58,198 nucleotides of DNA from a virus (Duplodnaviria > Caudoviricetes). The notes beneath the pieces are model-generated. The model searched no databases. It was not told the origin of the DNA and worked only from the letters and a program-made list of their open reading frames with translations. This document shows, piece after piece, positions 14,659-51,039 of the stretch. Numbering within the stretch: position 1 is the first letter of the stretch; each line of letters opens with the position of its first letter. The DNA lies in IMG/VR virus record IMGVR_UViG_3300025723_000042, positions 1 to 58,198 of that record, one strand, 5' to 3'. The translations under genes were made by a program, and so were the position numbers.

Positions 14659-14979
14659 ATGACAAAAACGGGAAGACCGCTTCCCAAGGATGTCATAGAA
14701 CATTGGCCAGAAGTATTCGGTGAAGTACACTTAAATGTGTTACCTCTTAGGTATCTCCATACCGTTTTGGTCAATTTTAAAGACGGCAAGACTTGGGAAG
14801 TGAAAATAACAGCAAAAACTAAAAAAGAAGGTTGGGGTGCCTTTGAAAAGAATCTTGCAGAACTCTTCAAAACTTATGAATCGACTATTGATAATGTAGA
14901 TTTTAAGTTGGACACTGAACGTGTTCGTAAAGATATAGAAGCAAGTACTCAGAAATTTTTAAAGAAAAAGAAGTTATAA
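14659..14979 (+). CDS. hypothetical protein
   Basis: 106 aa; directly abuts the previous stop. Confidence 0.7.
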   Translation: MTKTGRPLPKDVIEHWPEVFGEVHLNVLPLRYLHTVLVNFKDGKTWEVKITAKTKKEGWGAFEKNLAELFKTYESTIDNVDFKLDTERVRKDIEASTQKFLKKKKL

Positions 14980-14982
14980 ATA

Positions 14983-15669
14983 ATGAATGTTAGATTACTT
15001 AGTTTCTCTCAACCAACAGAAGAGTTTGCATCAATGGGCATCGATGACGCACAAGAACTCATTGCGTATTGCGCCCGTGTGTCCAATCCTTCCAATCAGC
15101 TTAACACAGACACATCAGAAAAGCTCATACAGTATCTCGTCAAACACAAACACTGGAGCCCGCTCGAAATGGTTTCCGCTTGTCTCGAAATCACTACAAC
15201 TAGAGACATTGCCAGACAAATCCTTAGACACAGAAGCTTCAGCTTCCAAGAGTTCAGTCAGCGATATGCTGACCCTACTAAAGACTTGTCGTTTGTATTG
15301 CGAGATGCTAGAAAGCAAGACACAAAAAATAGACAAAACAGCATAGAGTTAGATATTCATAATAACGATGAAGATCGGTTTTTAGCATATCAATGGGAAA
15401 GAATGCAAGAGTTAGTAATTAAACAATCACGTGACGCTTATACGTGGGCCATTGAAAAAGGTATTGCTAAGGAACAAGCTCGTGCTGTACTACCAGAAGG
15501 TTTAATCGAAAGTCGTTTGTACATGAATGGTACGTTACGTAGTTGGGTACATTTTATAGAACTACGTAGTGCAAATGGTACTCAGAAAGAACACCAGGAA
15601 GTTGCTATTGCTTGTGCTAAAGTGATATCTGAGATTTTTCCGCTAGCCAACGAACTTCTAGCCAATTAA
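14983..15669 (+). CDS. thyX: FAD-dependent thymidylate synthase
   Basis: HWSPLE, ARQILRHRSFSFQEFSQRY (ThyX RHRx7S motif), EQARAVLP and GTLRSW.HFIELR. Confidence 0.95.
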   Translation: MNVRLLSFSQPTEEFASMGIDDAQELIAYCARVSNPSNQLNTDTSEKLIQYLVKHKHWSPLEMVSACLEITTTRDIARQILRHRSFSFQEFSQRYADPTKDLSFVLRDARKQDTKNRQNSIELDIHNNDEDRFLAYQWERMQELVIKQSRDAYTWAIEKGIAKEQARAVLPEGLIESRLYMNGTLRSWVHFIELRSANGTQKEHQEVAIACAKVISEIFPLANELLAN

Positions 15670-16297
15670 AATCATTTATCTTAGCAAGTGCCTCCTTATT
15701 GGAGGCATTTTTTTCTCCGTATTGTTTACCAGATAACGCACCTAAATAGGCATAAAATCCGTATTCAGCATTTTCATTTAGTGTACACCATGCGTCTAAT
15801 CTGATTAAAGATTCCTCGTTATTAGTTACTGCCAGTTTACAAGATTCTCTAAACGCACTACGCCAAGTACTAAATGGATCTGTATTAAATGCTGTAATGT
15901 TACTAATACTATCCATTGCTTTAAATTTAGTACTGATATTTGTAGTCATATCTATAGTACTAGTATCCATTTTTAATGTAAGCGATTTTGGTAATAATTT
16001 AACTCCGCCGTATCCATAACTCAAATTATTAACAGGATTTAAACTACGCCAAACATGTACTACATCTAAATCCCATTCGCTTACTTCATAATCAAAATTA
16101 AAATCGTTTAATATAACAGCATCCGCATCTACTACCCAAAACATTTTAGTAAATGATTTACGAGCGGCGGCAATATGAGCTTGGTGTATTCCTTCTACTC
16201 CGTGTACACGTTTTGCTAAAGGAAAGCGTTCTTTTAAACTGGCAAAGTTATCGTCGGCATCTGGCTCATTATAACTTATAAAGATTATATCATACAT
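15617..16297 (-). CDS. GT-A fold (GT2-like) glycosyltransferase
   Basis: DIIFISYNEP, RVHGVEGIHQAH, FWVVDAD (DxD), YGYGGVKL and WRSAFRE. Confidence 0.7.
   Translation of the reverse strand: MYDIIFISYNEPDADDNFASLKERFPLAKRVHGVEGIHQAHIAAARKSFTKMFWVVDADAVILNDFNFDYEVSEWDLDVVHVWRSLNPVNNLSYGYGGVKLLPKSLTLKMDTSTIDMTTNISTKFKAMDSISNITAFNTDPFSTWRSAFRESCKLAVTNNEESLIRLDAWCTLNENAEYGFYAYLGALSGKQYGEKNASNKEALAKINDFNWLEVRWLAEKSQISL
15689..15714 (+). terminator. Rho-independent terminator ending the + strand block
   Basis: TGCCTCC-TTATT-GGAGGCA followed by T7, 20 nt after the thyX stop. Confidence 0.75.
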
Positions 16298-17186
16298 GGC
16301 GTTTTCTTATTATACGAGGACTATTACTATAAACTGTTTTAAAAAATCGACTTCCGGCAGAATCTAAATTAGCTATTTCTAGTTTACATTTGTCTCTTAA
16401 TTCTGCTCCTAAAAAATTAATGTATTTGGTCATCTCTTCAGGCTCTGCTACTTCATGTGTAGTATTCCAGTATTCTGTTAACCAATCAAAATCTCTCACT
16501 TGACTATAATCCCAATCAGTACAGTTTGTTTTCCAGCATCCTTCTCTGGCACCCATTATACTCCATATACCATTTTCTACATCTGTACCCACGCTAGCCC
16601 AAACTAATAATCTATGATAATTTTGCCACCAGATAGTTTTAAGATCTGCTACCTTAGCACCCTGGTCAAGTGACATCTTTACACCTTCACGGAATCCTGC
16701 TCGCCATGCTTGGAAGGGAGTTGCGTTGGTAAAACTTTCACTATAACTTTCATTAAATTGATAGTACTTGTCGTCAAAACAAAATTCAACTAGACCCTTA
16801 GTATCTTCTGGATCACTATTTTCATGTGTACGCATTTCATTTACAAAATTACGTGTCCATAATTTTAATCCACCATTACCATACATAAGTCCATTAACAT
16901 GAACACGCCCACACCAACTAAACACATGTTCAGGAGTTAACCCTAATTTGTCTAAGTCTATTTCTACTTCAAGAAATTTTGGATCTACAATATTGTCAGC
17001 ATCTACTGTAACAAAGTATTCCGTTTCACTTAATGCGGCGCAGGCTTTATGTGCGGCATCACTACCTTTAACTCCATGTACACGTTTAGCCCATGGCACT
17101 TTAGTACATAAATCAGCGTAGTTTTTTTCAGCATTAGGTTCATCATAACTGAGGAAAATAATGTCTTGTTCTAAAATTTTAATCAT
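16290..17186 (-). CDS. GT-A fold (GT2-like) glycosyltransferase, paralog of the adjacent gene
   Basis: DIIFLSYDEP, RVHGVKGSDAAH, FVTVDAD, YGNGGLKL and WRAGFRE. Confidence 0.7.
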   Translation of the reverse strand: MIKILEQDIIFLSYDEPNAEKNYADLCTKVPWAKRVHGVKGSDAAHKACAALSETEYFVTVDADNIVDPKFLEVEIDLDKLGLTPEHVFSWCGRVHVNGLMYGNGGLKLWTRNFVNEMRTHENSDPEDTKGLVEFCFDDKYYQFNESYSESFTNATPFQAWRAGFREGVKMSLDQGAKVADLKTIWWQNYHRLLVWASVGTDVENGIWSIMGAREGCWKTNCTDWDYSQVRDFDWLTEYWNTTHEVAEPEEMTKYINFLGAELRDKCKLEIANLDSAGSRFFKTVYSNSPRIIRKRHV

Positions 17187-17781
17187 GTTTTATTCCGTAG
17201 TAAGTAAAAAACTTTTTAGTAGATACTGATAAATTATCAATTTGAGATTCAATCGAGCTTTCGAAATCATAAATGATTTCTCCTGCCTTAAGTATATCAT
17301 GTATTCTAAGATAAAAAGTTCTAATTAAAAAATCTAAATCTGTAGATAATGTCACAAAAACAACCAGTGTATTATCATATCGAGCTCCAGATAGTACACT
17401 ACGTCCAGCATCAGTAATAGAAAATTTCCATTGTTTATTTTCATTATTCCATGTAACTGTAAATTCTGTATTAACATTGATAGGTTCTGTAATCCAAATC
17501 AAGTCGTTCTTTTTAAAACTAAACTCGTCAAACATCTGTTTGGTTATTAATTTATGTTCTATTGTACCGTCAGAATTAACTACACGATCAATAATACAAT
17601 CATTGAAATTAACTTTAGTAGATGTTAACTCGCCATGTTGATCTTTAGTAATTTTAGCATAGTACTTATGAGTTGGGTGTAATTCATTAGTAACTAAAAA
17701 TACTCGATCAGTTAATGGATCAAAATAAGCATAATGCTCAAGTTTAATATTTTCAATTGGATTAAATTTACGTTTAGCCAT
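17179..17781 (-). CDS. hypothetical protein in the glycosyltransferase operon
   Basis: 200-aa ORF with 8-nt overlaps on both sides. Confidence 0.7.
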   Translation of the reverse strand: MAKRKFNPIENIKLEHYAYFDPLTDRVFLVTNELHPTHKYYAKITKDQHGELTSTKVNFNDCIIDRVVNSDGTIEHKLITKQMFDEFSFKKNDLIWITEPINVNTEFTVTWNNENKQWKFSITDAGRSVLSGARYDNTLVVFVTLSTDLDFLIRTFYLRIHDILKAGEIIYDFESSIESQIDNLSVSTKKFFTYYGIKHD

Positions 17782-18613
17782 TTGCTAGTGCCTCTAATCT
17801 TTCTAGTAGTTTAGGAGTTATAAAATCCTTTTCTACATAATGAAATATTTTAGATTGATTAATGTTGTTTACTATAAGATCGCCTTTAATATTTAAAATA
17901 CACGATACTGCATCTGTCCATTTTTCTGGATATGTAATCCACCCTTGAAGAGGGCTTTTCATATGTATAAATTCTAAAGGACTATGTTTATCTAAAACAG
18001 TATTATGACACAACAATAATTCAATTGTTATTGCTGTTGCAAGATCCATACTGGGCCATTTTTGATATTCTTCAGGAGCAAATTTAGTCCAGCACCATTC
18101 CCAGTTTTTACAAACAAACTCTAATGTCTTATAAAACTCTAAAGCACCTTGAGATTTTTTAAAATAATGAAGAGCAAAATAAGGACTTGTAAGTTTATTA
18201 GCTATAAATGCTTTTCTATGTATTGTATCAACAACTGTTTCTAATTTATAATTCTTGATTCTATCGCAAAATTTAATTTCGTAATCTTTACAATAATCCC
18301 ACCAAGTGCTTATATCCTCGACTATCAGCATATCGCTATCCAATACAATAGTTTCATCATATGGACTAGCATGAAATAACTTCCATCTATGTTCTACCAT
18401 TAATGGACTATTTTCAACTTCTTCAAACCATGGGATAGGAATTATGTTATCAAATAACTGTTGATATTTTTCAGGTACTAGACAATTAGTTACAATAGAA
18501 ACATTTTTAATTTCTGTTTGACTGTATTTTATACTTAAAGCCAAGGCACAGGCTTGTGTAACATAATCTACATTATTTGTATTTTCGGCAAATATTAAAA
18601 ATCCCTTAGACAC
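17774..18613 (-). CDS. nucleotide-diphospho-sugar transferase (GT8-like)
   Basis: GFLIFAEN..DY..ALALSIK, SIVT, SPYDETIVLDSDML and FIHMK. GTG 18613 after GGAGG. Confidence 0.7.
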   Translation of the reverse strand: MSKGFLIFAENTNNVDYVTQACALALSIKYSQTEIKNVSIVTNCLVPEKYQQLFDNIIPIPWFEEVENSPLMVEHRWKLFHASPYDETIVLDSDMLIVEDISTWWDYCKDYEIKFCDRIKNYKLETVVDTIHRKAFIANKLTSPYFALHYFKKSQGALEFYKTLEFVCKNWEWCWTKFAPEEYQKWPSMDLATAITIELLLCHNTVLDKHSPLEFIHMKSPLQGWITYPEKWTDAVSCILNIKGDLIVNNINQSKIFHYVEKDFITPKLLERLEALANG

Positions 18614-19454
18614 CAGAACCTCCATCTATGTACCGACTTAAACTTATCTTGTTCATAACATGAACATCTAATCCTGTTGTTTTAACTAACGTATATTCTC
18701 CAATATGGTCTTTCTTTTCTACAAGAAATTTCATTTTATTACCATCTGTGTTTATTAGAATATCCTTGTCCTTGGAATAGGTCATTTTTCCTGGCAACTC
18801 AACAGCAAATTGTCCGTTGGTCTTTCCGTTCATAATATGAATGGCAATACTAAAAGCAAAATCATTTCTAAATTTAGCATCTACAATACCATACAATGTT
18901 CTGAAATACAACCAGTTAGATTTAATATAAACTATAAGATCAAAAAATGCCTGCGTTACAGAATTTTTTTCAAATATAAATGTAGTTGCCCAGTAAAAAG
19001 GAATACTGTATTGATTTATTCTATAAAATTCGTCAGTTGGACGCCAACTAGCAAGATCCATACTTTTACTGTATATTTGAAAATCGTAATGATTGTCCAT
19101 TGCTGGTTTAAGCACAGAAGAATTTAAAATATAATCGCTATCTATTACTAGTGTTCTATCGTAAGGAGTTAAATCGTACACTTGATCTCTAGTTAAATTT
19201 TTCCACTCGGCAGTTTTACTTGATATAGTACCGTCATGAAATTTTTTATACTGAGTAGTATCGGAATATCCTATAATTATAATTTGATCAAAACCGTGAT
19301 TAGGGTAAGCATCGGCTAACCAATCAGGACTATCTGTAACTATGCTTACAGGAATATCTAAATATTGTCTAATACGACTTGCGGCAAATACTGCCAGTTT
19401 GATATAGTCTACAGCAGAGTTATTCTGAGCGAATATTATTGCTCCTTGTGTCAT
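18606..19454 (-). CDS. nucleotide-diphospho-sugar transferase (GT8-like), paralog of the adjacent gene
   Basis: GAIIFAQN..DY, SIVTD, TPYDRTLVIDSDY, FRNDFAFS and HVMNK. Confidence 0.7.
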   Translation of the reverse strand: MTQGAIIFAQNNSAVDYIKLAVFAASRIRQYLDIPVSIVTDSPDWLADAYPNHGFDQIIIIGYSDTTQYKKFHDGTISSKTAEWKNLTRDQVYDLTPYDRTLVIDSDYILNSSVLKPAMDNHYDFQIYSKSMDLASWRPTDEFYRINQYSIPFYWATTFIFEKNSVTQAFFDLIVYIKSNWLYFRTLYGIVDAKFRNDFAFSIAIHIMNGKTNGQFAVELPGKMTYSKDKDILINTDGNKMKFLVEKKDHIGEYTLVKTTGLDVHVMNKISLSRYIDGGSGV

Positions 19455-20826: not shown

Positions 20827-20834
20827 TATTTATA
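20827..20834 (-). promoter_or_regulatory. T4-type late promoter TATAAATA
   Basis: Exact T4 late -10 consensus upstream of the 312-aa gene. Confidence 0.6.
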
Positions 20835-22902
20835 AAACTAGACATTCTACTAGTTTAACACTGATGTCATCGCTAGATTCTAATGCTACAGCAAATACAT
20901 CGTTCGCGTGTGGAACTGCGGCTACGGCTGTACCATTTGAAGAGGCAATCAAGCGTTGTCCTTTTCGAACCGCGCCTACAACTTTAACTGGAACACGACC
21001 TTTAAGAGCAATGTAAGTTCCGCCTTCTAACCCTTCATTCATTTTAAAAGCAGGATTAGCACTAACTACGCCAATTGCCAAATTGCCATAATTACAAGCC
21101 GTAACTTCTGCATTGCCACCTACGCTAACAACTGTTCCAACTTCGTATTCTTGATCTGCCAAATATTTTTCTGCTAAGTCCGCATAGTTGGCTGTTGTAG
21201 CATTTCCATAGAATATATTAGCATAAATGCTACTTGTTCCATCTCTAGCAACAACTGTTCCACTTGTTGACGCAGTAGTTGCTGATTCATAAGTTGTTCC
21301 GTTAACAATCAATGTAGTTGCTTTACTAGCAATACCAGTTACGTTACCTGTTAGGCTTCCAGTAAATGCTTTAGCAGTAGCATCAACCAATACACTATTG
21401 TCAGTAGCTTTAACGTTACCTGTTAAAATACCAGTCACATTACCTGTTAAATTAGCTGTAATTGTACTAGCACTAAAATTACCACTGCTATCACGTGCTA
21501 CAATAGTACTTGCTGTCCCTGCGTTAGTTGCGTTTACAAATCCACCATTGAACGCTAGTGTATTTGCTTGAGTAGCTGTACCTGTTAAAATATTAACTGT
21601 TGTATTACCGCTAGCATCTCTGGCCATTATGGTACTTGCTGTATTTGTAGTTGCCGCTGATACAAAATTACTACCTAATAATAATTGATTTGCCTTAGTA
21701 GCAATACCATTCATCTGTGTTACATTGATATTGCCGCCAGCATCTCTGGCAACAATACTTGTTTGTCCAACAGCATTAGCTACACTAGCTTGATTAGCAC
21801 CCGATACTGAAGCTTGAATTGTAAGAGTATCTGCTTGTTGAGCAGTTGCATAAACATAACTAGCGTATACGTTTCTCCAACGTTGTGGGCTAGTACCTTG
21901 CAAGCCACCGCCTGTGTTAGATCCTAAATCGCAAGTTAAATCATCGCCTGGTAATACTTGAGTGTTTAATAACTGTAAAGGTACCACAAGCTGACTACTT
22001 GAATTGGTAGTTTGAAATACTATAGGAGTACTATTAACTGTGCTTCTAAAAGTTGGAGTAGTATTGCCATCGTTGAATACTAGTAATTTAACACTAGCAC
22101 CTACAGTATAGCCTCTATCGCTAAAATTAACAACATCTCCAAATACAGCATTAGTACTTAGAACATATCCGCTTGCGCTTACACCGCCTAATTGATCCGA
22201 ATCAGTAGCTGTTCCCCAGAATCTAAATAAATTAGTATCGTTTAAGTTGCTTGATGTATCAAGTGTACCGTTTGTAACACCAATCTGTGAAGGATTATTA
22301 GTATTAACTAGTGTAACACCTTTGTAAATCCAATCGTACCCAGTACTAAATCCCAATGTAGCATTAGCTGTTGAATCTTGTTCAAACGCAGAATCGCTAC
22401 TAATTGTAAAAATGACATTTCCGTTATCATATGCTGCAATAACAGCATGAGTTCCGCCTGCTTTATCTTTAAGGCTGATACTTTGCATTTGTGTATTTTG
22501 TGCGCCGTTAACTGCTTGAGGTCCAATTAATGTAGGTGCTGTTCCATTCCACGCAAATAACTGATTACTAACTGTATCGAACCAAAAATCGCCAACGCTT
22601 AATCCCGAAGGTGTTGTGGCACTTACATCTGCTCCGCCTACTACGCGAAATTTTGTTCCGTCATAGAATTTTATTTTGCCAGCACTACTATCAAACCAAA
22701 TTTGTCCAGTTAAAGGATTTGCTGGAGCAATACTATTAGCAAAATTTTCTAACAAATAAACAAAATTTTCATTTTGTGCTAATCCATAGCCAGCATAACT
22801 TTTACCAATCAATTTAAGATCAGTTGTTGTATCAACTGTACCATCGGCAACTGTAGTTATCGCTGGTAAATTTGGGTTATAGTGGTAAATTGTATATGAC
22901 AT
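20830..22902 (-). CDS. tail fibre protein with C-terminal intramolecular-chaperone (peptidase G2-like) domain
   Basis: Shared fibre N-terminus (LIGKSYAGYG..NENF..LLENFA), repeated IVARDxxG units, and C-terminal YADLAEKY...GVVS.NP...ALKGRVPVKV. Confidence 0.75.
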   Translation of the reverse strand: MSYTIYHYNPNLPAITTVADGTVDTTTDLKLIGKSYAGYGLAQNENFVYLLENFANSIAPANPLTGQIWFDSSAGKIKFYDGTKFRVVGGADVSATTPSGLSVGDFWFDTVSNQLFAWNGTAPTLIGPQAVNGAQNTQMQSISLKDKAGGTHAVIAAYDNGNVIFTISSDSAFEQDSTANATLGFSTGYDWIYKGVTLVNTNNPSQIGVTNGTLDTSSNLNDTNLFRFWGTATDSDQLGGVSASGYVLSTNAVFGDVVNFSDRGYTVGASVKLLVFNDGNTTPTFRSTVNSTPIVFQTTNSSSQLVVPLQLLNTQVLPGDDLTCDLGSNTGGGLQGTSPQRWRNVYASYVYATAQQADTLTIQASVSGANQASVANAVGQTSIVARDAGGNINVTQMNGIATKANQLLLGSNFVSAATTNTASTIMARDASGNTTVNILTGTATQANTLAFNGGFVNATNAGTASTIVARDSSGNFSASTITANLTGNVTGILTGNVKATDNSVLVDATAKAFTGSLTGNVTGIASKATTLIVNGTTYESATTASTSGTVVARDGTSSIYANIFYGNATTANYADLAEKYLADQEYEVGTVVSVGGNAEVTACNYGNLAIGVVSANPAFKMNEGLEGGTYIALKGRVPVKVVGAVRKGQRLIASSNGTAVAAVPHANDVFAVALESSDDISVKLVECLVL

Positions 22903-22922: not shown

Positions 22923-22930
22923 TATTTATA
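22923..22930 (-). promoter_or_regulatory. T4-type late promoter TATAAATA
   Basis: Exact consensus upstream of the 690-aa fibre gene. Confidence 0.6.
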
Positions 22931-23615
22931 CTGTATTTGGTGTTGACTGGTTACCCTGTACCCAGGTGTTAAAAGCCGCCATCTGATCAGCATCATATCC
23001 ATACAATTCAGGGTATATACTAAGCCAAACCGAGCTTAATTCTGGCACCATGGCCTTAAATCTGACAGAAGCGTAACCTATCTTGTTTAATTGAAAGGTT
23101 ACTGTGCCGCCGTTTGTTGTTGTAGACTTATAAACGCTAGGATCAGCACCATCGATACTAATAGGAAAATCTAATTTTTGTAGATTTTTTACACCTATTT
23201 CTGTAATATCAGTACACTGAACTCCATTTTGATCTACAATTTGTGGAATAAGAGTAATAAGATTGTCTACTCCTACAATTGATTTCTTTTTACTGTCTAA
23301 ATAAGTATTAGGACCAAAATTTACAATAGCTTTTCTCATTTTAAGAGTATTTTCTGGAGTCCAAAAAGCCATTTGACTTGGAGCTAAAATACTTTGAGAA
23401 ATATCATTGTATTGTTGCTGGGTGATAGTTCCTAGATAATGATTTTCTAGATCTGTATCGCTATGCTTAACATCAGCAAAAGACGCTAGTGCCCCGTAAA
23501 GCCCTGTGATTAATCTAGTAGTCATTGAAAATGTAATACTATATTGTTTGTCTTCTGTCCATCCAGTAGATATTTTAACTCCTGGTGGTGCTGGTGGTAT
23601 AGTTGTATCTGTCAT
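22926..23615 (-). CDS. hypothetical protein coupled to the U32 gene
   Basis: 229 aa; ATGA overlap with the U32 stop; no recognisable motif. Confidence 0.7.
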   Translation of the reverse strand: MTDTTIPPAPPGVKISTGWTEDKQYSITFSMTTRLITGLYGALASFADVKHSDTDLENHYLGTITQQQYNDISQSILAPSQMAFWTPENTLKMRKAIVNFGPNTYLDSKKKSIVGVDNLITLIPQIVDQNGVQCTDITEIGVKNLQKLDFPISIDGADPSVYKSTTTNGGTVTFQLNKIGYASVRFKAMVPELSSVWLSIYPELYGYDADQMAAFNTWVQGNQSTPNTV

Positions 23616-24610
23616 GCTGTAACCTTTATTAATTTATCGTATACTTTGTCGCAATGATCGCATTCAATTCCGCAAACTGTTTTACAATTATTAGTTAGCT
23701 GATTGAATCCTAGTTCAGTAATATCATTGATCAGTGTTAATGCCAATGGCATGTGACCTGTAGTGCTTAATATTTCACCGAATCTAACATTACCACTAGA
23801 TCTTTGATAAGCGTCTACTACACGGGTCCATCTTTCGATAGGGTAACCTCTTCCGGCTAGTTTAATAACATCAACTAAACCGTCAAACTTTCCTAAATCA
23901 TTAGGAAATGTAAATGCTGTTTTAAGCCATTCGGCAGGACGTTCTTTAAAATAGCTAACACATCCTAGTTGATTGTGTACACTAGAAGTCAACTCTCTCT
24001 TGTCGTGTATCTTAACTTGACTTATAATTAAATCGTCCCATTGTTTCCATTTACAATCTACTATACATCCTTCATTAACTAGCATGGTAATTTTAATATC
24101 ATGCTGTTTGGCATACGCACTCATCTTGCGTAAGGTATCTAAGTCTCTATTTAAACTTCGATCTACAATGATATTTGTAAGATGTAACACTTCATGCATA
24201 AAAATAAAATCTTTAAGTGTACGTACTAAGTTGTTTACACTATTTTTTAATACAATATCAGGCTTATGTTTTTGAAAATCTTTAATAATATTAGATCTAA
24301 GCAAATAAGAATTATTAAGAGTTACCATATCCACGTCAATATTTTTAACGTGCTCTATTAAATCAAACACTTGTCCATAAAATTCATTACTATACAAACT
24401 AGGGTTAATAAGATAATGTAGTTTTATACCGTATTTGTTTCGTACGGCATACAATTCATCAAACATTTCTTTTGAGCCGAACAAACTTCTAGCACTACCA
24501 AATTTATTGTCGCTAAAATACACATCGGAGATAGAATCAACATCAAGGTCTTCTAAAGCTCCAAGTATTCCTGGTGTATAAGGTATACTAAATTTACGGT
24601 GTGTAGACAT
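23612..24610 (-). CDS. peptidase U32 family protein (probable Fe-S enzyme)
   Basis: TIM-barrel-like pattern LHYLIN, DMVTLNNSYLL, NSVN, IVDRSLNRDL, MLVNEGCIVDC, later GC, IKLAGR, and C-terminal CKTVCGIECDHC. Confidence 0.75.
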   Translation of the reverse strand: MSTHRKFSIPYTPGILGALEDLDVDSISDVYFSDNKFGSARSLFGSKEMFDELYAVRNKYGIKLHYLINPSLYSNEFYGQVFDLIEHVKNIDVDMVTLNNSYLLRSNIIKDFQKHKPDIVLKNSVNNLVRTLKDFIFMHEVLHLTNIIVDRSLNRDLDTLRKMSAYAKQHDIKITMLVNEGCIVDCKWKQWDDLIISQVKIHDKRELTSSVHNQLGCVSYFKERPAEWLKTAFTFPNDLGKFDGLVDVIKLAGRGYPIERWTRVVDAYQRSSGNVRFGEILSTTGHMPLALTLINDITELGFNQLTNNCKTVCGIECDHCDKVYDKLIKVTA

Positions 24611-27437
24611 TGTTTGTTCTGCTTCCTATTCCAATCCAGCTAGCTTCTACACTGGTTCCGTGATAATAATGGTCACCGCTTGTAGCCGCTGTTACATAGA
24701 ACCAACCGTAGTAGTAATTATTTCTGTCATAACTCAATGGTTGAACACTTACGGCCCAAGTTACTGCTTCTAATCCATAATAATTATTTCTTCCATCATA
24801 TATGGAAGTAAGCGCAGAATGAATATTCAAGTCGTAGTGCCCTTTCCAGTATAAACTGTTAGGATCATAACTTAGTCCTAGTATAGATCCTAAGTCTATT
24901 GTGATAGTAACTGATCCATTTGACTGATAACCGTAACCTAAATTATAATAACTGGTGGTCCAACCGCCGTAAGTACTGCTAGGAGCATAGGCATTTCCAA
25001 CTGGTGACCCGCCCCACTGATGCATATCAATGGTTCCTACGATAGTTTCAACAATATTTTGTAAATTGTTATTTAAATTTTGAGCAATAATTATAGGATT
25101 AGGAATATAAGGCTTGTTGCTTAGGTCGTTATAGTTACCTGTTGTAGCCACTGTTGCTAATAATGAACTAAAGTTAGCATCAGTTAAAATTTTAGCCCAT
25201 GGACTCCAAGTATTAGCTACATCGCGACGACTACGAATATAGTTGTCGGCGTGGGCACCAGTTGAACCGCTCCAACCAATTAACAATTCACCTCCGCCTC
25301 CGCCGCCTAATGTAATTAAGTTACCGTAAGTTGTTGGATAACCATTATTGTAAACACCACGTAATGTTAACTCTCCGCTTGGTTCGCTTTGTCCGTTTGA
25401 CTCGGCTGATATATTACCTTGATAACGTAAAGCACCAGTTGTAGTAGAATAGTTTACACTAAAGTTCAATGGGTTCCAAACATAAGAATTTGCTCCGTCA
25501 TTTGAACCCCATAACCATGTTGGTTGGCCACCTTGGCCATTCCAATGTAACTTCATATTATACGCATCAGTATTAATATAAGTTGAATAGGTAGCGTTAA
25601 CAGAATTAGTAGCCGTGTCGGCATTACCTGTTACGTTACCTGTTAAATGTCCTGTTACATTACCAATCAAATTGCCAGCAAAATGGTCGCTAGCAGTATG
25701 GATTGTTCCTGTCGCATTACCTGTTAGATTACCTGTTACATTACCAGTTACATTTCCAAGAACGTTACCTTGTAAATTACCAGCAAAGTAATTAAGTGCG
25801 GTAAGAACAGAACCAGTTACATTACCAGTCACATTACCAATTAAGTTACCTGAAAAGTGATCGCTAGCTGTATGAACAGTACCCGATATGTTACCAGTTA
25901 CGTTACCAGTTACGTTACCAGTTACGTTACCAGTTACGTTACCTTGTAAATTACCAGCAAAATGATTAAGGGCTGTAAGAAGATTACCTGTTACATTACC
26001 TGTTACATTACCTGTTAAGTTACCGATAAAGTGATCTGTAGCAGTATGGGTTGCTCCTATGATATTACCTTGTACATTACCAACAACGTTACCAAAAACA
26101 TCACCGACTTGTTGTCCTGAATGAGTTCCAAAACTATCGCCAGTCAGCGTACCAGTTACATTACCTGTTACCGGTCCGCTATGTTGTCCTGTTGTATTAC
26201 CTGTTACATTTCCAACAATACTAATATTGTAAGTAGCATTGTTATTAAACACAAAATTATTTGGTTTATTTGGATAAACGTTATTCCAATCAACTTGATT
26301 AGCTACTGTGGCGACATCTGCGAGTGTAGCGTGGTCGGCTAATGCGGCATGGTCTGCTTGTGATGCCGCATCTGCCTTTCCAATGAAATGAGGACTAGTA
26401 ATAGCACCATTGCCGTCTCTAATAACTGCTGTATTAGGAGTTCCAGATACACTGGCTGTTTGATAATTGCCGTTACCGTCGTTTAGCGTATCTGCTTTTT
26501 GTGCTGTAGAAAATACATAACCAGCGTATACATTATTAAACTTAAGACTGCTACTACCTAAATTTGTACTTAGATTAGTATTAGGTAATACGTTGTTGTT
26601 AACCAATGTTAATGGAGTATTTGCTCCTGCATTAGTTTGAAATTGTATTGTTGTTGACGCGGCTCTTAATGTTGGTATTGAACTAACATTTAATAATGTT
26701 GTTGCTGAACCAACATTGACTCCTGCATCTGGAGTTTGAATACTTGTCAGGAATACTGGATTAGAAACTGGAGCATAAAAACTAGGAGGATTATTTCCTA
26801 AATTATCTGCATTTGTACTTGTTCCGTGTACTTTATAATTTGAATTTAAAGTTATTCCTTGGAATACTGTAGCAAAACCTGGAATAGAAACTTTAGGTGT
26901 AAAATTTTCGGCGGAACTAACAATGAAATAAATGTTACCGTCTACTAGAGCTTGTTGTACAGGATGCGGATTGTTATCTGTATCTAAAATAGTAGTACTA
27001 AACATTTCTGTAGTACCAAACCCTGTTACACTTTGTGGACCTACTAGAATGTAAGCAGATCCGTTGTATACTTTTAATTGATTATTAGCTGTGTCATACC
27101 ACATGTCTCCAAGTGTAGGAGTTCCAGCTGGGTTTTGACCGCCAGCAGATGTTGGTCCAACTTGATTAACAGCAAGCGATTTCCAACCGCCGCCGTCAAA
27201 CACATTTAATTTTAAAGCAGAACTAGTTGTATTAAACCAAGTTTGCCCTGTTGTAGTTTTTAAAGGCTGACTAGTGCTAGCAAAATTTTGTAATAACCAT
27301 AAAAAATTATCGTTTTGCTTTTCACCGTACCCGGCGTAGTTTTTACCAATAAAAGTAAGACTTGAAGTGGTATTAATTGTGCCGTCTGCTACTACAGCAT
27401 AGGGTGTTCCATCAAAATTTGTTATGTTGTATGACAT
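24594..27437 (-). CDS. long tail fibre / receptor-binding protein
   Basis: Shared fibre N-terminus, (GNVT)n shaft, WNGQGGQPTWLWG and YNNGYP..YG...WSPW fibre modules, VATTGNYNDLSNKP, and a Tyr/Trp-rich C-terminal domain. Confidence 0.8.
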   Translation of the reverse strand: MSYNITNFDGTPYAVVADGTINTTSSLTFIGKNYAGYGEKQNDNFLWLLQNFASTSQPLKTTTGQTWFNTTSSALKLNVFDGGGWKSLAVNQVGPTSAGGQNPAGTPTLGDMWYDTANNQLKVYNGSAYILVGPQSVTGFGTTEMFSTTILDTDNNPHPVQQALVDGNIYFIVSSAENFTPKVSIPGFATVFQGITLNSNYKVHGTSTNADNLGNNPPSFYAPVSNPVFLTSIQTPDAGVNVGSATTLLNVSSIPTLRAASTTIQFQTNAGANTPLTLVNNNVLPNTNLSTNLGSSSLKFNNVYAGYVFSTAQKADTLNDGNGNYQTASVSGTPNTAVIRDGNGAITSPHFIGKADAASQADHAALADHATLADVATVANQVDWNNVYPNKPNNFVFNNNATYNISIVGNVTGNTTGQHSGPVTGNVTGTLTGDSFGTHSGQQVGDVFGNVVGNVQGNIIGATHTATDHFIGNLTGNVTGNVTGNLLTALNHFAGNLQGNVTGNVTGNVTGNVTGNISGTVHTASDHFSGNLIGNVTGNVTGSVLTALNYFAGNLQGNVLGNVTGNVTGNLTGNATGTIHTASDHFAGNLIGNVTGHLTGNVTGNADTATNSVNATYSTYINTDAYNMKLHWNGQGGQPTWLWGSNDGANSYVWNPLNFSVNYSTTTGALRYQGNISAESNGQSEPSGELTLRGVYNNGYPTTYGNLITLGGGGGGELLIGWSGSTGAHADNYIRSRRDVANTWSPWAKILTDANFSSLLATVATTGNYNDLSNKPYIPNPIIIAQNLNNNLQNIVETIVGTIDMHQWGGSPVGNAYAPSSTYGGWTTSYYNLGYGYQSNGSVTITIDLGSILGLSYDPNSLYWKGHYDLNIHSALTSIYDGRNNYYGLEAVTWAVSVQPLSYDRNNYYYGWFYVTAATSGDHYYHGTSVEASWIGIGSRTNNVYTP
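25620..26220. repeat. degenerate 12-bp coding tandem repeats (GNVT) with a higher-order ~58-aa unit
   Basis: GTTACCAGTTAC x4.5 is perfect at 25890-25943. HTAxDHFxGNL occurs three times and LTALNxFAGNLQG twice. Confidence 0.85.
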
Positions 27438-27471
27438 TTTCGCTCTGCTCTTTTAATATTCAATATTTACC

Positions 27472-32039: not shown

Positions 32040-35000
32040 TTAACTCTTGTAATCTGTATACCACACACCTGGACTGACTTTTAAGAACTCAGAAATCTTG
32101 CTATTATCGTTTAAAATATTAACTGGATTGTTCTTGTTTCCGTCCCATGCTGTTCCGATTTGTTTGATTACAGTAATTTGAGTTCCTTTGTTTAGTAAAT
32201 TAGTTAATGTTATGGATTTTGAAACACCGTCTACAGTAAAATCTGCCGGTAATTGAACATCACCTGCCGGACTGTAAGGATTAACATTAACATTGTGTAC
32301 TTTGTATGGTTGTTTCTTTAATCGAATATTTCCAATAAAGAATGTCCAATTACTACTATCAGCACTAAATGTTGCTCCGGCAGTATGTGCCGTTGTACAT
32401 CTATATGTATAACTACCTATGTTTACAATGTCACCAACATTATAACTAACACCAGATGCCCAAGAAGATCCATCATTGTATCCGCCGACAAATACTTCAA
32501 TATCACCCGGAACTTCTGCTACAATCGCATGAGTTTTAGCATTATGGATAGGATATAGTCCAGGAGCAAAACTTAAATTCACCGTACTTGTTCCATCACT
32601 AATAATTTGTTCAGTAATAGTAGTTTCAGTATATGGAATAGTTTCAGTTGGGCCAATATCTTGTACAAACGCACCTGCTTTATGTAAAGTGTAAACACCT
32701 GTGCCTAAAGTTCCACGACGTAGTCTACTTAATACGTTGCCATTAATGGCAAAATATTCAATACGCTCGCCGCGAATTTCAATTACGCCTGGTTTGTTAG
32801 CTGTAGGATTTGGCACATCAAAGTTACTAGCATCTACCAATGTAATACTAGTATCATTCCAATGTAAATCGTTAGCAAGAGTGGTTCTCTTACTTAAACT
32901 TAAACGCTTATAACTTACACGATTCAACATATCTTTAAATTGCATGTAGGCAATTCCCGAAGATAATATGTTACTTCCAAATGTAATAAACGTTAGTTGA
33001 TCAGATCCTAATGGCAATGTTGCCAACTGGACACTTTGCTTATCATCATTTAATTTGTAATCAATTGTAGGTGTTAATAGTTTACCATTCTTTGTAATCC
33101 ATACATAACTGTCACTCAATACAGTTCTTTCTAGTTTAATTAAACCAGATGCTAGATTTTTGTAATAATAGTAATCAGCAGTATTTGGAGTTAATGAGAC
33201 ATTAGATGTAACATTAACGCTAGATCTTTGAATATCTAATACAGAATGATTATAAGAACTTATTACTTCTACAACATGAGTATGGTCATAGGCTTGTGTA
33301 AATGTAATTGTTTGTGATTCTGGATTGTAAAAATAACTTTCATCCGTTGTAATACTTACTAATAACGTAGTTCCTGAATAAAGTGTGTAAGCATTTTTTG
33401 TCAATGTAATAGTAATTCCAGACAAATCTACAGTATAGTCCGATCCTAGATTTAATTTTATACCGTTAGCTATCACATTAATATTTTGAATGGTTGCTGA
33501 GTATGGAATAATCTTTGCTGGATCAATATTATAGTTTAGTTGATTATTTTCAATTGTAAAATAGTTATCATTAGGGCCTGACAAAATAGTTTGGTCTACA
33601 CGAACTATCATACTAGACTCGTATGGTAAACTTGTTCCGACAGGATATGCTAATGGATAAGTTAAACTTACACCATTAGTTGCTATAATTTCTTTATTTG
33701 TTACTACAAATGTTTGTTGTGCTCCGCTGACAATAACAAAATTAATTAAACTACCAACTGTTGGAGGATTAATAAATTTAAATCCAACAGCATTAGCAAA
33801 ATCATAAGTTGCGTCTGTTTTAAACAACTGAGGATTAGCAACAACTCCGTCAATATAAACAACTGCTGTTATATCTTTGAGCCAAGGCGCTTTAGTTACA
33901 AATTCTGTAGTAGTTCCGTCTCCGACAAAATAATCAAGGTCAAGAATATTAGAACCAGCAAATCCTATATTAAAGACTGTTACAGTAGTTTTAGCTGGAG
34001 GTGTCGATAATAATGTAATTTTTTTATTTTTATAATCGACTGTATAATCTGTTTGATAAGTTTTTATAGTATTACCAACTTTAACAATCAATGCTTTTGG
34101 ACTGTTAGGTTGTTGTGTTAAAGTATATGTAGAAGTTGTTCCGTTGGCAATAAAATTGTCTGTCACAATATTTGCGGCACCCGAATTAGATCTATCATAA
34201 ACTTTAATAGCCACAGCATCAACTACTTGTCCTGGAACAACTTCTTCTGGAGCAGGGCTTGTAGTTGGAGTAACCATTCCGTCACCGTCAACTATAATAT
34301 CATCTGCTGCCAAGCCGGTAGCTGTACTATATGCCAAATCACCGCCTACTAGAGAAGTGTCATAATCGTTGGCATTTGGTAATATAGAACCATCGCTGGT
34401 ACTACGTCTGATAATAAACTCATCACCGTTAGATACTGTATATCCACTAGGAATTGTAATTGTATATTGATATAATCCAGGCGCAACTTGACTGTCTGGA
34501 GTTCCGGTAGCAATTGGAGATATCATTATAGCATTTTTATTTGTCTGTTGCTGTGTTCCATAATATGGATCATCTAATCTTACAGGACTAATTTTACCAG
34601 TAATATTAAGAACTGATAAATTAGACAACCCTGTAGGATACGTTGTACTATTAAGCACAGCAGTTCCGTTAGCATTAATTGTTATATCAGTTGGTTGAGA
34701 TAATGTTTTAGTAAATGTTAATTCAATATTTGGATTAATATCTGAATATAAAATTGAATTCAAAGCGACTGTTTGACTGTCAACGATACCTGTAACTGTT
34801 GAATTATAAATTAATGATTTAACTGTAGCGCAAGCTACAACATCTCCAACATTAATATATGTTGTATCTGAGACTGTAAGCTGTGTACTACCAGCAAAGT
34901 TAAATGTAAAGATTAGTGTTCCGCTAGGAATACTATCAGGTGCTCTGTTCAATGTAACAGTATTAGTATCTTGATTCACGCTAACAACTTTATGTATAGC

Positions 35001-38000
35001 ACTACCAATGATAGTACCAGCTTGAGTCTTAGTGCCAGTTGCGGTACTTGCGTAACTTACACTTGTAGTAGTACAAGCGGTAACTGTATAAGTTCCATTG
35101 TAAGCTACCGGCAATACATTATTAACAATAATTGTTTGACCTACGCTGTAAGGTGGAGCTGAAACAGTATCGAATGTCAATGTAACAGTAGTACCATTTC
35201 CGCTTGCGCCAGTAGTTGTTAATACGGCTACGTTAGAACTAAATCCTACACCAATAATTCCCATGCCTGGCAATATGCCAGCGGCACTTGCCACAACTAA
35301 AGTTGTTTCATAGCTTCCGTTAGGATTGTATGTAGTAGAATGTCCGGCAGTATTAATGTGTGTAATAGTTGTTGCCACAGGACTGCTATCATTAATGTTA
35401 TAACTAAATTCTAATTGATTATTATAAGTTCCAGTTCTGTTATCATAACTATCTACATTGTTTTTAATTTGATAAATGTTTAATTCTGTATTTGCGGCGG
35501 GCACATATGGCAATGTAAAACTATGTGTGTTAGCGGCAACTGTTACATAATAGTCGTCAAAACTACTGTCATAATTGTCCCACTTGTCCTTATAGTAAGG
35601 ACTAGATCCCCATCCTGTTTTTACATTGAACCCAAGTCCGTCAACAATAGTTCCGCCGTAATCGATACCAGTCATAACCTGTGCTAGATCTTTACCTAAC
35701 ATTCCAGAACCTGGTTCGTAATAAAACTCAATACGATCCGCGGCATTAAGCATAGCTGTGTTAATTAGATATGTAACCGATAAAGTAGATCCTTTAGCTG
35801 GAGCATTTCCTACAGCAAATGTAATTAATCCAGAATATTGAGTGTATCCGTTCTTAGTTGAAACTACTGTACTTAATGTGTACAATTCTCTTAATACCGG
35901 AATACCATTAACTGTAATTGAACTTTGTCCAATTCTAATATCTGGCGCCCAAGTCAACGCAAATTTTAACTGGCTTCCATCACCGGCAAATGTTTGTGTT
36001 TGCTGCAATTGTGTTATATAGTTTGTATGGCTTACTCTATCAAACTTAATACCAATAGTAGTTGAACGAACAACACTTTCTCCAATTATTGCGATAGCTC
36101 TTGCTTGTACGCCAACAGTTGATAATCCGCCATCTAAGACAATTTCTGGAACTGACAAGTATCCACTACCAGGAGTTAACAATACCACTCGAGTTACAAC
36201 ACCGTTTTTAATAAATGCTCTACCAGTGGCACCCGATCCGCTAGTACTGTTAAACACTACATGAGGAGGAATATTATATCCTGATCCGCCATCAATTAAT
36301 ATTAACTCAGTTACAACAAACCCTACATTATCTAACCAGAATTTCCAAGGATATGTTTGTATAGCACTATCACCTGCTACTAGTTTTCCGTTTTGTACAG
36401 TTACATCAATTAATCCAACTTTATCATTTTCATAAATTGGCATTAAATCAAAGTCAGTAATAGGTAATTGAGCAGTATCTAAACTTTCGTAATTGCTTAC
36501 ATATTCTCTAACTTTTGTTCTGTAAGGTTTTACTTCCGAAACATAATCTTCAAAATTTGACAAGTTGTCAACGGGGTAATTTACAGGTTGATCTAGCATT
36601 CCAACATTGTGTTGAGCTTTAACAAAACTAGTTTTAAAAATCCAATCTACATATACTTGCTCGCTCAATACATAATGAACAGTATTGAAGAATAAATTTA
36701 AATATTCTTGTTTTAAATTGTCAATAAAGATATTATTTTTAATAGTGTTTAAAATAATTCTTAATTCTGTTGCGGCAACAACGTCAAATCCTTCTCCGTC
36801 AAAAATACTCGAATCGTAACCTACGTCAGTTAAAGCAAAATCATATAATTTACTGCTAAACTGTATAGTTCCATTTTGTATACCAACTGTATTATAACTT
36901 TGTGTCCAGTCAACGCTGTTTACATTAGCAAATTTTTCTAATAATAACCAGCCGCCGTTATTTGATGTTCTAATTCTAACAACTTGTCCAACTTGAATAG
37001 TTAATGAATTTAATTCAACAAATGTATCAACAGCATAATCTTCTAATGAATACTGACTATAACCAGAAGCATACCAATCTGAATAAGACCAGTAATTTCT
37101 CACATCATAACTTTGTGTTAATGTTCTAGACCATTGTTTGTAAACAGGATCGTAAGTATAGATACTCCATTGATTGTTTGCTTGACTATCGCTATGTACT
37201 AACACCGCGTAGTTTCTAATTACACAACGAGTATTACTATCGTAGCCAACACCGGAAGAAATAACAGTTGCGCCTGTTACTTGACCCAATGCGTTTATTG
37301 TTGCTCTAACTACGGCGCCTTGGCCAGAGCCAACAATTTCTATATAAGGGGAAGTAGCAATTCCATTTACGACAGAAACATATCCCTTACCTGCTGAATT
37401 TATAATAATTCCAGTAATTTGTCCGTTGTTAATAATAATAGGAACTAGATTAGGAACAGCAAAACTTGCCACGCTAGCATATGGTAATTCGGCATCTGTA
37501 TCCAATATAGCATCATATAGCCCAGTAACTACTGTTGGTTCTTTATCGTAACTTTCCAAGGCACTAATATTAAGCTCGGCAACTTGATTAGTAATCATTA
37601 CTTGATTAGCATATTCAATTAATTGTTTTAATGCTTCAAATCGATTAATAACCATACTTTGTCTTGGACGATTTTCAATTCCATAACGAATCTTAAACGG
37701 CAATCTTGGGTCAGGTACTACTTTTCCAAAACTGTCTATACCGCATAAACTATCAAACCATTTTTGTTCAATTGTCTTAGGTAAATCAATGTTTGGATCG
37801 TTGCTGATCATCTTGTACTGTGTATGTATATTTTGATCTGTTTTATCGATAGTCCAGAATTCTACAGATAACACTACGTTAGATGAGGAAGTATATCCCT
37901 TAACATTAGTCAAACTAAATGTGTTTAATCCAGTAATACCTAAATAGGTGTAATCTTGTCCTCTTGGATTTGATATTAAGTTTGCTACATCCATAGCAGA

Positions 38001-50500: not shown

Positions 50501-51039
50501 TATATAGTTGCTTTATCTGCTGGATTTCCATACTGTTGTGTTTGTGGCATTGCGGCATTTAACACACTGATAAATTGGTCATACCAATTAGGATTACTGC
50601 TGTCGTTCCAAGTAATATATTGTCCTGATAAATTTCTACCGTTGCTGTCTAAAACAGATTCTGTAGTAGAAATAACATTAAATTTTAATAAACCAGTTGC
50701 CGCAGTATTACGCTTTGCGTTATAACCAATCATACGTGCTAAACGTAACACGCTGTCACGACGGCTAGCAAGCTCTAAAAAGTTTTCACGAGCATTTAAA
50801 TCAACACGGAAAGCTATGCTTTGGCCCACGTAGGCTATAAGATCAATTAGGGCAAGGTATTCGCTAGATTCAATATAATCGTTAAAATCTTCAGGAAAAT
50901 TAGTACGGATATAGTCAATCATTGTACGACGTAAATTGTCAAAGTCGTAGCTTTGGAAGTCTGCGTTCTTAAATGATTGATAAATTTTCTGCCAGTCCTC
51001 ACTGACTAACAGGTTGTTTAGTCTATCCGTTGAGCTCAT
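47578..51039 (-). CDS. gp6: baseplate wedge subunit (T4 gp6-like)
   Basis: YDFDNLR..MIDYI...DFND..ESS...LIDL.AY, ENFL..A.RRDSV..LA..IGY and QNRMIT.EDY. Confidence 0.85.
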   Translation of the reverse strand: MSSTDRLNNLLVSEDWQKIYQSFKNADFQSYDFDNLRRTMIDYIRTNFPEDFNDYIESSEYLALIDLIAYVGQSIAFRVDLNARENFLELASRRDSVLRLARMIGYNAKRNTAATGLLKFNVISTTESVLDSNGRNLSGQYITWNDSSNPNWYDQFISVLNAAMPQTQQYGNPADKATIYGVPTAQYRFNATNSDVPVYSFTKPVAGRNMNFEVTSTTFKNQTYIYEEPPKIANSIACVYKDDGYGAGSAGTGFFFNFTQGSLGVGNFTVTQPSSNQQIDIATQNINDTDLWLYQLDSNGIESTLWTQVPSTLGNNIIYNSLNSKIKTIYSVVTRATDAISLQFSDGTFGDLPLGNFRTYYRVSNNLTYTVAPTDIRNVSIDIPYTSATGTSEILSISLSLQTTVSNSATSETNASVKTNAPQTYYTQNRMITGEDYNISPLSSSTDVAKVKALNRTSSGISRYFDLVDPTGKYSSTNLFADDGVIYREPFIASSTFSYITQTDIQGVILGQIYDILNDPNLRNFFYQQYVISLSNSNIAWNQVTSSTTNSTGYIDTTTNSSPLQVGSYTNTSLQYLTPGSLIQFTVPNPGTQYFDTTNNNILSTSNINQAGASSYIWAEVVSVSGDGRGLLVSSSYTGVLSSGYGAIMLNKSIPEGAIISQIIPSFTRTFSSTVITTIIDLVFANKPFGLSYNGSTQSWQIIFETNLNTTDSFSLGNQGDLTNANKDSSWILLFTTNNEYYTVTTRELRYVFESDAQVTFYFDTNTKIYDVVNTAIVKDNIKILSINTQPGSTSPFTLNYNWDVVSEYNGQDGYIDPSKIVVSFADSTNSGIVDNPQLFLDIVSPDSATTFVVQEKYLISQGEEDYRYVSNDSAKGPVIILPTKPGSGVNGQYYYFVDANYVSQYVNGEGFVPTLDYKVYVGRDNLKFQYTHSADYDSRIDPSASNIMDVFVLTKTYDTAFRQWVIGATSVEPLPPSSNQLNTQLSPNLNLIKSISDEIVYHPVSYKLLFGAQADLSLQATFNVVRNPSSTASNSNIIARILTAINAFFNLDNWDFGDTFYFTELSTYILTQLNPDITSFVIVPKQAGQYFGSLFEIQCPSNQIFISCAQASDIVIVSGLTSANLKTITGEALTTVINTQNITSATNGASNG

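Follow-up and report, generated by a model that had tools for sequence, protein, structure and literature searches.

Why would a giant phage carry, within its row of tail-fibre genes, a gene for an enzyme-like protein that begins inside the fibre gene before it? We examined this question in IMG/VR virus record IMGVR_UViG_3300025723_000042, whose complete sequence of 58,198 bases (completeness estimate 16%) is referred to here as the window. On its minus strand an accessory, fourth tail-fibre gene of 947 amino acids (aa), which matches PHROG tail-fibre families (24594..27437), is followed by the gene of a 332-aa TIM-barrel protein resembling the U32 family (23612..24610; called the enzyme here) and by that of a 229-aa protein (22926..23615; the partner). 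A first-pass annotation of the window had proposed that these three genes form one cassette, with the 229-aa 'orphan' as a chaperone or adaptor for an enzyme that modifies the fibre. We found a genetic link between the enzyme-partner pair and receptor-binding genes, which in this phage group means a single optional fibre. The reading that we prefer, with a probability of roughly 0.4, is that the trio encodes an optional fourth receptor-binding fibre together with its own two-protein maturation factor.

Fibre, enzyme and partner genes are present or absent as one unit

The three genes overlap one another. The fibre gene ends with a TAA 17 nucleotides (nt) after the ATG of the enzyme gene, giving a 17-nt overlap, and the enzyme and partner genes share a 4-nt stop-start overlap, ATGA; both are read directly from the sequence and agree with the first-pass annotation. 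From upstream to downstream on the minus strand, the genes are a 5181-aa open reading frame (ORF), a 202-aa protein, a 753-aa fibre, a 549-aa fibre, the 947-aa fibre, the enzyme, the partner and a 690-aa fibre, so that the trio is flanked on both sides by paralogous fibre genes and, as had been noticed before, interrupts a run of them. All four fibres have an N-terminal region in common, and no enzyme- or partner-type genes lie beside the other three. Because the 202-aa protein adjoining the fibre genes matches jumbo phages of the Atu_ph07, Phosso and GAP32 types (44-53% identity), we assign the window, on this sequence similarity, as a fragment of an uncultured Rak2/Atu_ph07-like giant myophage.

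With the 202-aa protein as anchor, 80 loci were fetched, and we counted the 52 in which the region was complete from the 202-aa gene to a conserved 116-aa gene beyond the fibres; the 28 loci with incomplete coverage were left out, and there was no match in those either. In all 52 complete relatives the enzyme, the partner and the tip domain of the fibre are absent, as is the whole 947-aa fibre gene, and the fibre region holds three fibres only and spans 5.3-9.2 kilobases (kb). Eight anchored carrier clusters, the window included, have tip, enzyme and partner in a span of 11.3-14.0 kb, and none of the 60 anchored clusters showed a mixed state of the three features. Applied to the window and to 30 related loci (L003-L032), the same pipeline detected tip, enzyme and partner in every one. 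We then mapped the carrier label on a tree of the 202-aa baseplate-region protein (66 rows, with 14 carriers and 52 non-carriers), which is a single gene whose history recombination could blur. The label requires at least three changes, two of them forced by well-supported branches, whereas the mean for shuffled labels was 12.9, and not one of 500 shuffles came down to 3. From this joint presence and absence, together with the at least three changes on the tree, we conclude that the trio was acquired or lost as a whole on more than one occasion.

A scan of IMG/VR gave a separate set of 52 loci related to the window, many of them near-copies from related samples. The enzyme is at least 34% identical to that of the window in 41 of them; two end too early downstream to judge, and in each of the 39 that could be tested the enzyme gene is immediately followed by that of a partner homolog. 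The partner was detected independently by tblastn in 30 loci, and a profile made without the 34-36% identity clade still recovers the partners of that clade (E 2e-7 to 3e-5). Taken together, these results show that the three genes behave as one unit, as the first-pass annotation had supposed: the partner follows the enzyme in 39/39 loci, and the trio is all-or-none in 8 + 52 relatives.

The 332-aa protein is a remote relative of the U32 family

The U32 family (PF01136) includes the iron-sulphur (Fe-S), O2-independent hydroxylation enzymes UbiU/UbiV, TrhP (YegQ) and RlhA (YdcP). The 332-aa protein gave no U32 match in Pfam or NCBIfam, even at E up to 10, and no usable match among PDB sequences; its sole PHROGs match is phrog_5757, 'peptidase' (E 3.5e-4). 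Among its 84 metagenomic homologs many have a precomputed PF01136 entry, and when 24 aligned relatives were rescanned five matched PF01136 at E <= 0.01 (best 2.9e-6). In cultured T4-like phages a homolog is present in 195 records at 22-24% identity, with at least 80% query coverage in 194 of the 195, and two of these homologs exceed the Pfam U32 cut-off (45.3 and 42.8 bits against 22.4).

The structural comparison points the same way. In two independent searches, an AlphaFold2 model of the protein with a predicted local distance difference test (pLDDT) value of 87 had the U32 protein Mk0906 (5d88) as its best solved match: in Foldseek at E 2.8e-7 and TM 0.66 on the target, and in an exhaustive VIA-align comparison with 48,161 chains at rank 1, with Z 16.1 and a root-mean-square deviation of 3.4 Å for 221 of 247 residues. 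The next chain scored Z 13.6, and glycosidase TIM barrels (Z 11-13.6) fell below 5d88. The model therefore has the U32 fold, a TIM barrel like that of Mk0906, and the sequence does not reach the Pfam gathering score. The 'U32-family' label of the first-pass annotation stands as far as remote homology and fold are concerned, but not as a direct Pfam or NCBIfam match, and membership in U32 is in this sense remote and purely transitive.

The Cys clusters quoted in the first-pass annotation are present. The protein has exactly seven Cys, at positions 182, 186, 217, 309, 313, 317 and 320, in the pattern C182-x3-C186, C217, C309-x3-C313-x3-C317-x2-C320; all seven are invariant in 24 of 24 aligned family members and are also kept in 12 further homologs of distant clades. 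Compared with characterised U32 enzymes, the window protein is alike in its TIM barrel, in the weak PF01136 matches of 5/24 of its relatives and in a CX3C that aligns with C193/C197 of UbiV. It differs in lacking a PF01136 match of its own, in having CX3C...C...CX3CX3CX2C in place of CX6CX15CX3/4C, and in that its gene is carried by a phage, is presumably expressed late and shows coupling to a tail-fibre gene. As far as sequence can tell, it belongs to a distant offshoot of the U32 superfamily that is specific to phages and carries a Cys signature of its own. We also considered that it might be a genuine collagenase or protease, as the old U32 label implies, and set this aside: the family has no defined catalytic residues, and the fibre repeats are not collagen-like.

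The pair follows different receptor-binding genes in different lineages

By enzyme identity the related loci form three clades, all adjoining fibre genes, of which two are of jumbo type and the third belongs to another phage type. In the clade of the window, all 25 loci (at least 71% enzyme identity) have a gene that encodes the window's fibre tip at its end and terminates at the enzyme start; in 23 of these 25 the tip aligns up to 13 nt beyond that start. The 49-54% clade has short proteins of 313, 344 and 643 aa encoded directly upstream of the enzyme, which share only their last ~115 aa with the window fibre (blastp E 4e-11 and 1.3e-6; profile hits). In the 34-36% clade the portal protein is of another family, and the genes upstream of the enzyme encode a collar-type fibre and a 156-aa protein.

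At 29% identity, a 111-kb IMG/VR contig (L044 1-7671) encodes a Fibrinogen_C protein and then two enzyme genes, each with a ~230-aa protein after it, followed by three radical-SAM genes, two of them with SPASM domains. The ~230-aa proteins match the partner profile with hhalign probabilities of 62-66%, compared with 0.06-1.1% for five unrelated neighbour proteins. This fourth lineage thus probably carries the enzyme-partner pair, and the region looks, from its gene content, like a protein- or peptide-tailoring cluster beside a receptor-binding gene. The expectation that homologs would always sit beside this fibre tip and the orphan is therefore borne out in part: the tip is directly upstream in the two closest clades, but homologs at 29% identity or less also occur in replication and DNA-modification regions or fused to a methyltransferase. 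By hhalign, the fibre tip is unrelated to the upstream proteins of two other lineages.

These arrangements bear on the possibility that the pair is a non-catalytic assembly chaperone for the 947-aa fibre, with the U32-like fold and its Cys kept for stability. T4 gp38 and gp57A and the Tfa proteins of Mu, P2 and lambda are fibre chaperones or adhesins encoded downstream of fibre genes. The window pair resembles them in lying directly after a fibre gene, with translational coupling, and in being present only with one particular fibre while the other three fibres have no such genes. It differs in that neither protein has sequence or profile similarity to chaperone or adhesin families in Pfam, NCBIfam or PHROGs, and in that it consists of two proteins, of which one has the TIM barrel of an enzyme and seven invariant Cys. 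These Cys are invariant across clades with different neighbours, methyltransferase fusions included, which points to retained chemistry. Moreover, known fibre chaperones track one tip fold, whereas the upstream fibre domains here differ between lineages. We regard a purely chaperone-like role as distinctly improbable.

The partner is predicted to be an Ig-like protein that binds the enzyme

The partner has no match to a Pfam, NCBIfam or PHROG family and no U32 domain, and tblastn found no homolog of it in 50,697 cultured phage records. In its model (pLDDT 86.7) a small alpha/beta domain at the N-terminus is followed by a beta-sandwich (aa 94-208) and a helix at the C-terminus. The sandwich is immunoglobulin (Ig)-like and comes closest in fold to adhesin domains from invasin and intimin (VIA Z 8.8 to 7.6); the best of these, invasin 1cwv at Z 8.8, is a middling value. 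Foldseek gave no PDB match for the model at E <= 0.001 and one weak viral match, to an uncharacterised protein, while the ESM Atlas gave, as a lead only, a run of Ig-like (Big_1) clusters with a best score of 0.79. The family is small: a profile search among 1.84 billion representatives yielded 36 clusters, all stand-alone and of ~110-310 aa, the two exceptions being a 36-aa fragment and an Ig-repeat protein of 1114 aa, with no fusion to enzyme or fibre.

Prediction of an enzyme-partner complex gave a score of 0.70, compared with 0.00 for the best of three controls. In a benchmark, 0.70 was reached by 58 of 80 solved complexes and by 2 of 110 mismatched pairs, counts that apply only approximately here because the prediction used our own alignments. 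The prediction runs agree in at least 58% of contacts, with a partner pLDDT of at least 80, and the predicted interface contains the nearly invariant partner residue Y201. By this modelling the partner is predicted to bind the enzyme, and the suggestion that the orphan serves as an adaptor fits the predicted complex. UbiU-UbiV is reported to be a heterodimer (PMC6747719). The window enzyme would be similar in this respect if the prediction is right; it differs in that its partner is an Ig-like protein with a small N-terminal domain and not a second U32 paralog.

The three proteins also differ in conservation. Identities to the window enzyme, partner and tip are 98/97/88% in L003, 91/79/70% in L004 and 72/46/40% in L024, and this order, enzyme above partner above tip, fits a conserved catalytic subunit with a faster-evolving specificity subunit.

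Another possibility is that both proteins are virion parts that bind the distal end of the fibre, where they would act as the adhesin itself or as an enzyme working at the surface; the Cys would then bind zinc, form disulfides or hold a structural cluster. A fibre gene followed by distal components is a usual gene order, seen in T4 genes 34-38. The resemblance of the partner to invasin and intimin adhesin folds would suit such a role, as would the scores of glycosidase TIM barrels against the enzyme model, even though these stand behind 5d88; the predicted heterodimer is equally compatible with a structural complex, and lambda gpL is said to be a virion protein with an Fe-S cluster. On the other side, the occurrence of the seven-Cys family in early and replication regions and in methyltransferase fusions points to an intracellular enzyme, neither protein matches a PHROG or Pfam structural family, and the enzyme is the most conserved of the three proteins, which would be unusual for an exposed receptor-binding part. 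We think it unlikely that the pair is built into the virion.

The accessory fibre has an aromatic tip

The 947-aa fibre consists of the shared N-terminal region, central GNxTGN-type repeats with HTAxDHF motifs, and a distal region. The tip domain (aa 833-947; 24597..24941, minus strand) is rich in Tyr and Trp and has no Cys; an alignment of 26 distinct tips shows the conserved motifs W-x-G-N-Y, Y-G-x-F, Y-H-G, W-x-G and N-V-Y. Over the last 147 aa, Tyr accounts for 13.6% and Trp for 4.1% of residues, which agrees with the first-pass description of a Tyr/Trp-rich tip, compared with 3.4-4.8% Tyr and 0-0.7% Trp in the same stretch of the three paralogous fibres. Among cultured phages, tblastn found no homolog of the last 178 aa of the fibre, and megablast found no match to the DNA of the trio. 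That DNA is present in 24 freshwater or lake DNA sequencing runs, one of which is possibly the source run; no RNA run was among those listed.

We also observed that the central repeats, of the GN(V/L)TGN type (fibre aa ~400-640; window 25500-26300, minus strand), are interrupted three times by the H-T-A-x-D-H-F motif. This motif may be a metal-binding His pattern, by analogy with those of other fibre shafts.

Relatives outside fibre regions and the substrate of the pair

Several observations weigh against a role of the pair in tailoring the fibre. The motif CX6CX15CX3/4C is reported to bind a 4Fe-4S cluster in U32 proteins, with C39, C180, C193 and C197 as ligands in UbiV (PMC6747719). The first-pass annotation had noted that the protein keeps Cys clusters; this canonical motif is absent from the 332-aa protein, which has no Cys within the 15 residues before C182. 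Only C182-x3-C186 aligns with C193/C197 of UbiV, in a weak hhalign match: the enzyme family reached a probability of only ~7% against the single E. coli UbiU and UbiV sequences. Homologs at ~25% identity occur in marine T4-like phages beside clamp-loader, Rad50-like, NifU, 2OG-oxygenase and PTPS genes, and in enterobacterial T4-like phages a seven-Cys homolog lies between DNA polymerase and UvsX, beside genes related to hydroxymethylcytosine (hmC). The same seven Cys are thus found in DNA-metabolism regions, so the chemistry of the family need not involve a fibre. Among the four lineages, the receptor-binding domains encoded upstream show no sequence relationship to one another, which makes one common protein substrate site unlikely. 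Adjacent genes that are gained or lost by recombination may co-occur without a shared function, and our counts overstate independence because so many loci are near-copies (26 distinct tips among 33).

In one marine T4-like contig (L054 9842-13013), a NifU_N Fe-S scaffold gene is found two genes away from that of a 451-aa distant seven-Cys homolog, which is a point in favour of our preferred reading, and a 2OG-Fe(II) oxygenase gene three genes away. Two groups of distant relatives are also informative. The protein ORF050c of RB69 has been listed as 'Peptidase family U32' (PMC1524935) and is named among the genes presumed to act in arabinosyl-hmC synthesis (PMC8056088). Proteins of this type share 22-24% identity over ~90% of their length and all seven Cys with the window enzyme; they differ in their length of ~380 aa, in lying above the Pfam U32 cut-off (45.3 bits against 22.4) and in having no partner gene and no fibre neighbour, their place being between DNA polymerase and UvsX.

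The second group consists of fusions to a methyltransferase. P0002, a 544-aa protein from a 3.1-kb metagenome contig, has an enzyme part 91% identical to that of the window and a C-terminal Methyltransf_24 domain (PF13578; 31.3 bits against a cut-off of 26.3), and aligns end to end with Prochlorococcus phage P-SSM4 gp035 (E 8e-32). The latter belongs to the same enzyme family (hhalign probability 98.6%) and has the same Cys pattern. The composition of P0002 suggests recombination between partner-type and fusion-type cassettes. Further viral contigs also encode U32-like/methyltransferase fusions; a tail-fibre gene lies 2.6 kb upstream of the fusion in one of three loci examined, and in another contig (L060 6861-10086) a 568-aa fusion is followed by a 505-aa protein matching the PHROG 'tryptophan halogenase' (E 2e-101). 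The fusions differ from the window enzyme in the fused methyltransferase, in conserved neighbours phrog_1417 and phrog_1409, and in that none of five neighbours tested by hhalign is a partner homolog. No methyltransferase domain of the kind in the P-SSM4 fusions occurs in the window or its 52 related loci, and a search for fused forms returned none of at least 640 aa, which is weak evidence. We found no paper on phage U32-like/methyltransferase fusions.

From these relatives one could argue that the enzyme acts on a substrate other than the fibre, such as phage DNA, RNA, a nucleotide or a small molecule, that the fibre region is merely a site for accessory genes and that the partner is a subunit for that substrate. 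In phage Mu the DNA-modification gene mom, expressed late, reportedly also lies beside fibre genes. The seven-Cys homologs in DNA-metabolism and hmC-modification regions are in keeping with such a role, and P0002, with its 91% identical enzyme part joined to a methyltransferase, recalls the hydroxylate-then-methylate route of tRNA. All characterised U32 enzymes are reported to act on tRNA, rRNA or quinone precursors (PMC6599085, PMC5727448, PMC6747719). Yet the partner-type pair was found only beside receptor-binding genes, in four lineages; in the backbone relatives it never occurs without the fibre; and the enzyme gene begins inside the fibre gene. The C-terminal domain of the partner is moreover an Ig-like sandwich, a fold common on virion and surface proteins and unusual as a subunit of nucleic-acid enzymes. 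On balance, we consider a non-fibre substrate somewhat unlikely.

A tentative scheme for fibre maturation

If the trio is an optional fibre with its own maturation factor, fibre, enzyme and partner would be made late from a single transcript, translation of the enzyme and partner genes being coupled to that of the fibre gene. Enzyme and partner would form a heterodimer inside the infected cell, in which the fast-evolving partner would be the adaptor that recognises the distal part of the fibre. The slowly evolving seven-Cys TIM-barrel subunit would then perform a metal- or Fe-S-dependent tailoring of the fibre, or would be needed for its folding. In this scheme we infer the binding of a metal or Fe-S cluster, action in the cytoplasm, the fibre as substrate and the chemistry of the enzyme.

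To our knowledge, no U32 enzyme acts on a protein, and we know of no phage U32 member with an established role. By analogy with characterised U32 enzymes, the tailoring step would most likely be an O2-independent hydroxylation of an aromatic side chain; for U32 hydroxylation, prephenate is described as the oxygen donor (PMC10990095). The full proposal, in which a phage-encoded, U32-type and O2-independent Fe-S enzyme is directed by its Ig-like adaptor to aromatic side chains of the fibre tip and hydroxylates them, or modifies them in some other way, after translation, is doubtful in our estimate.

Promoter-like motifs and neighbouring genes

The first-pass annotation had described the trio as bounded by late TAAATA motifs, which holds better at one edge than at the other. 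At the downstream edge, an exact T4-type late-promoter octamer, TATAAATA (22923..22930, minus strand), overlaps the partner stop codon and sits 20 nt before the ATG of the next fibre gene (start 22902). The octamer is rare in the window, with 3 copies against 12.9 expected, and each copy lies immediately upstream of a gene start (14975-14982 on the plus strand, 20827-20834 and 22923-22930 on the minus strand); judged from sequence, T4-type late promoters of a Rak2-like jumbo phage would be expected to be placed in this way. At the upstream edge the full octamer is absent. A TAAATA within GTAAATAT (27464..27469, minus strand), 26 nt upstream of the ATG of the 947-aa fibre, matches TATAAATA at 6/8 positions and is a possible T4-type late promoter core. 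The upstream boundary of the trio is thus weaker than the downstream one.

Other features of the fibre cluster were noted. The 690-aa fibre downstream of the trio has a C-terminal domain (aa 546-688; window 20830-21270, minus strand) that matches PHROGs 6427, 22593 and 19602 and also ends shorter fibres of relatives; it might serve as an exchangeable tip or as a module acting like an intramolecular chaperone. The 5181-aa ORF that adjoins the cluster (32040-47585, minus strand) has a 1153-aa ORF (47578-51039) upstream of it, and related loci have giant ORFs of at least 1500-1840 aa at its position, cut by the ends of the loci. Tandem pairs of paralogs lie downstream of the fibre cluster (15617-19454, minus strand): a 226-aa/298-aa pair that is ~31% identical and a 282-aa/283-aa pair at ~25-30%, as estimated from cross-hits in related loci.

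Implications

The U32 superfamily is known, while its seven-Cys phage branch, the Ig-like partner and the linkage to an accessory fibre are undescribed; the first-pass remark that no example had been reported agrees with our literature search, which found no paper on a fibre-linked U32 protein. The trio is a compact, clonable three-gene unit. Even if the fibre is not the substrate, it would still offer a handle on a phage-wide family of seven-Cys enzymes, which has members in cultured model phages, RB69 and P-SSM4 among them. If the tip is indeed tailored, a U32 enzyme would for the first time be seen to act on a protein, and a phage adhesin to be tailored enzymatically; related cassettes would contribute methylation, by way of the fused methyltransferase, and perhaps halogenation, given the tryptophan-halogenase-like gene beside one fusion. 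If the fibre is the substrate, the pair would bear on host recognition and on the exchange of accessory fibres between giant phages.

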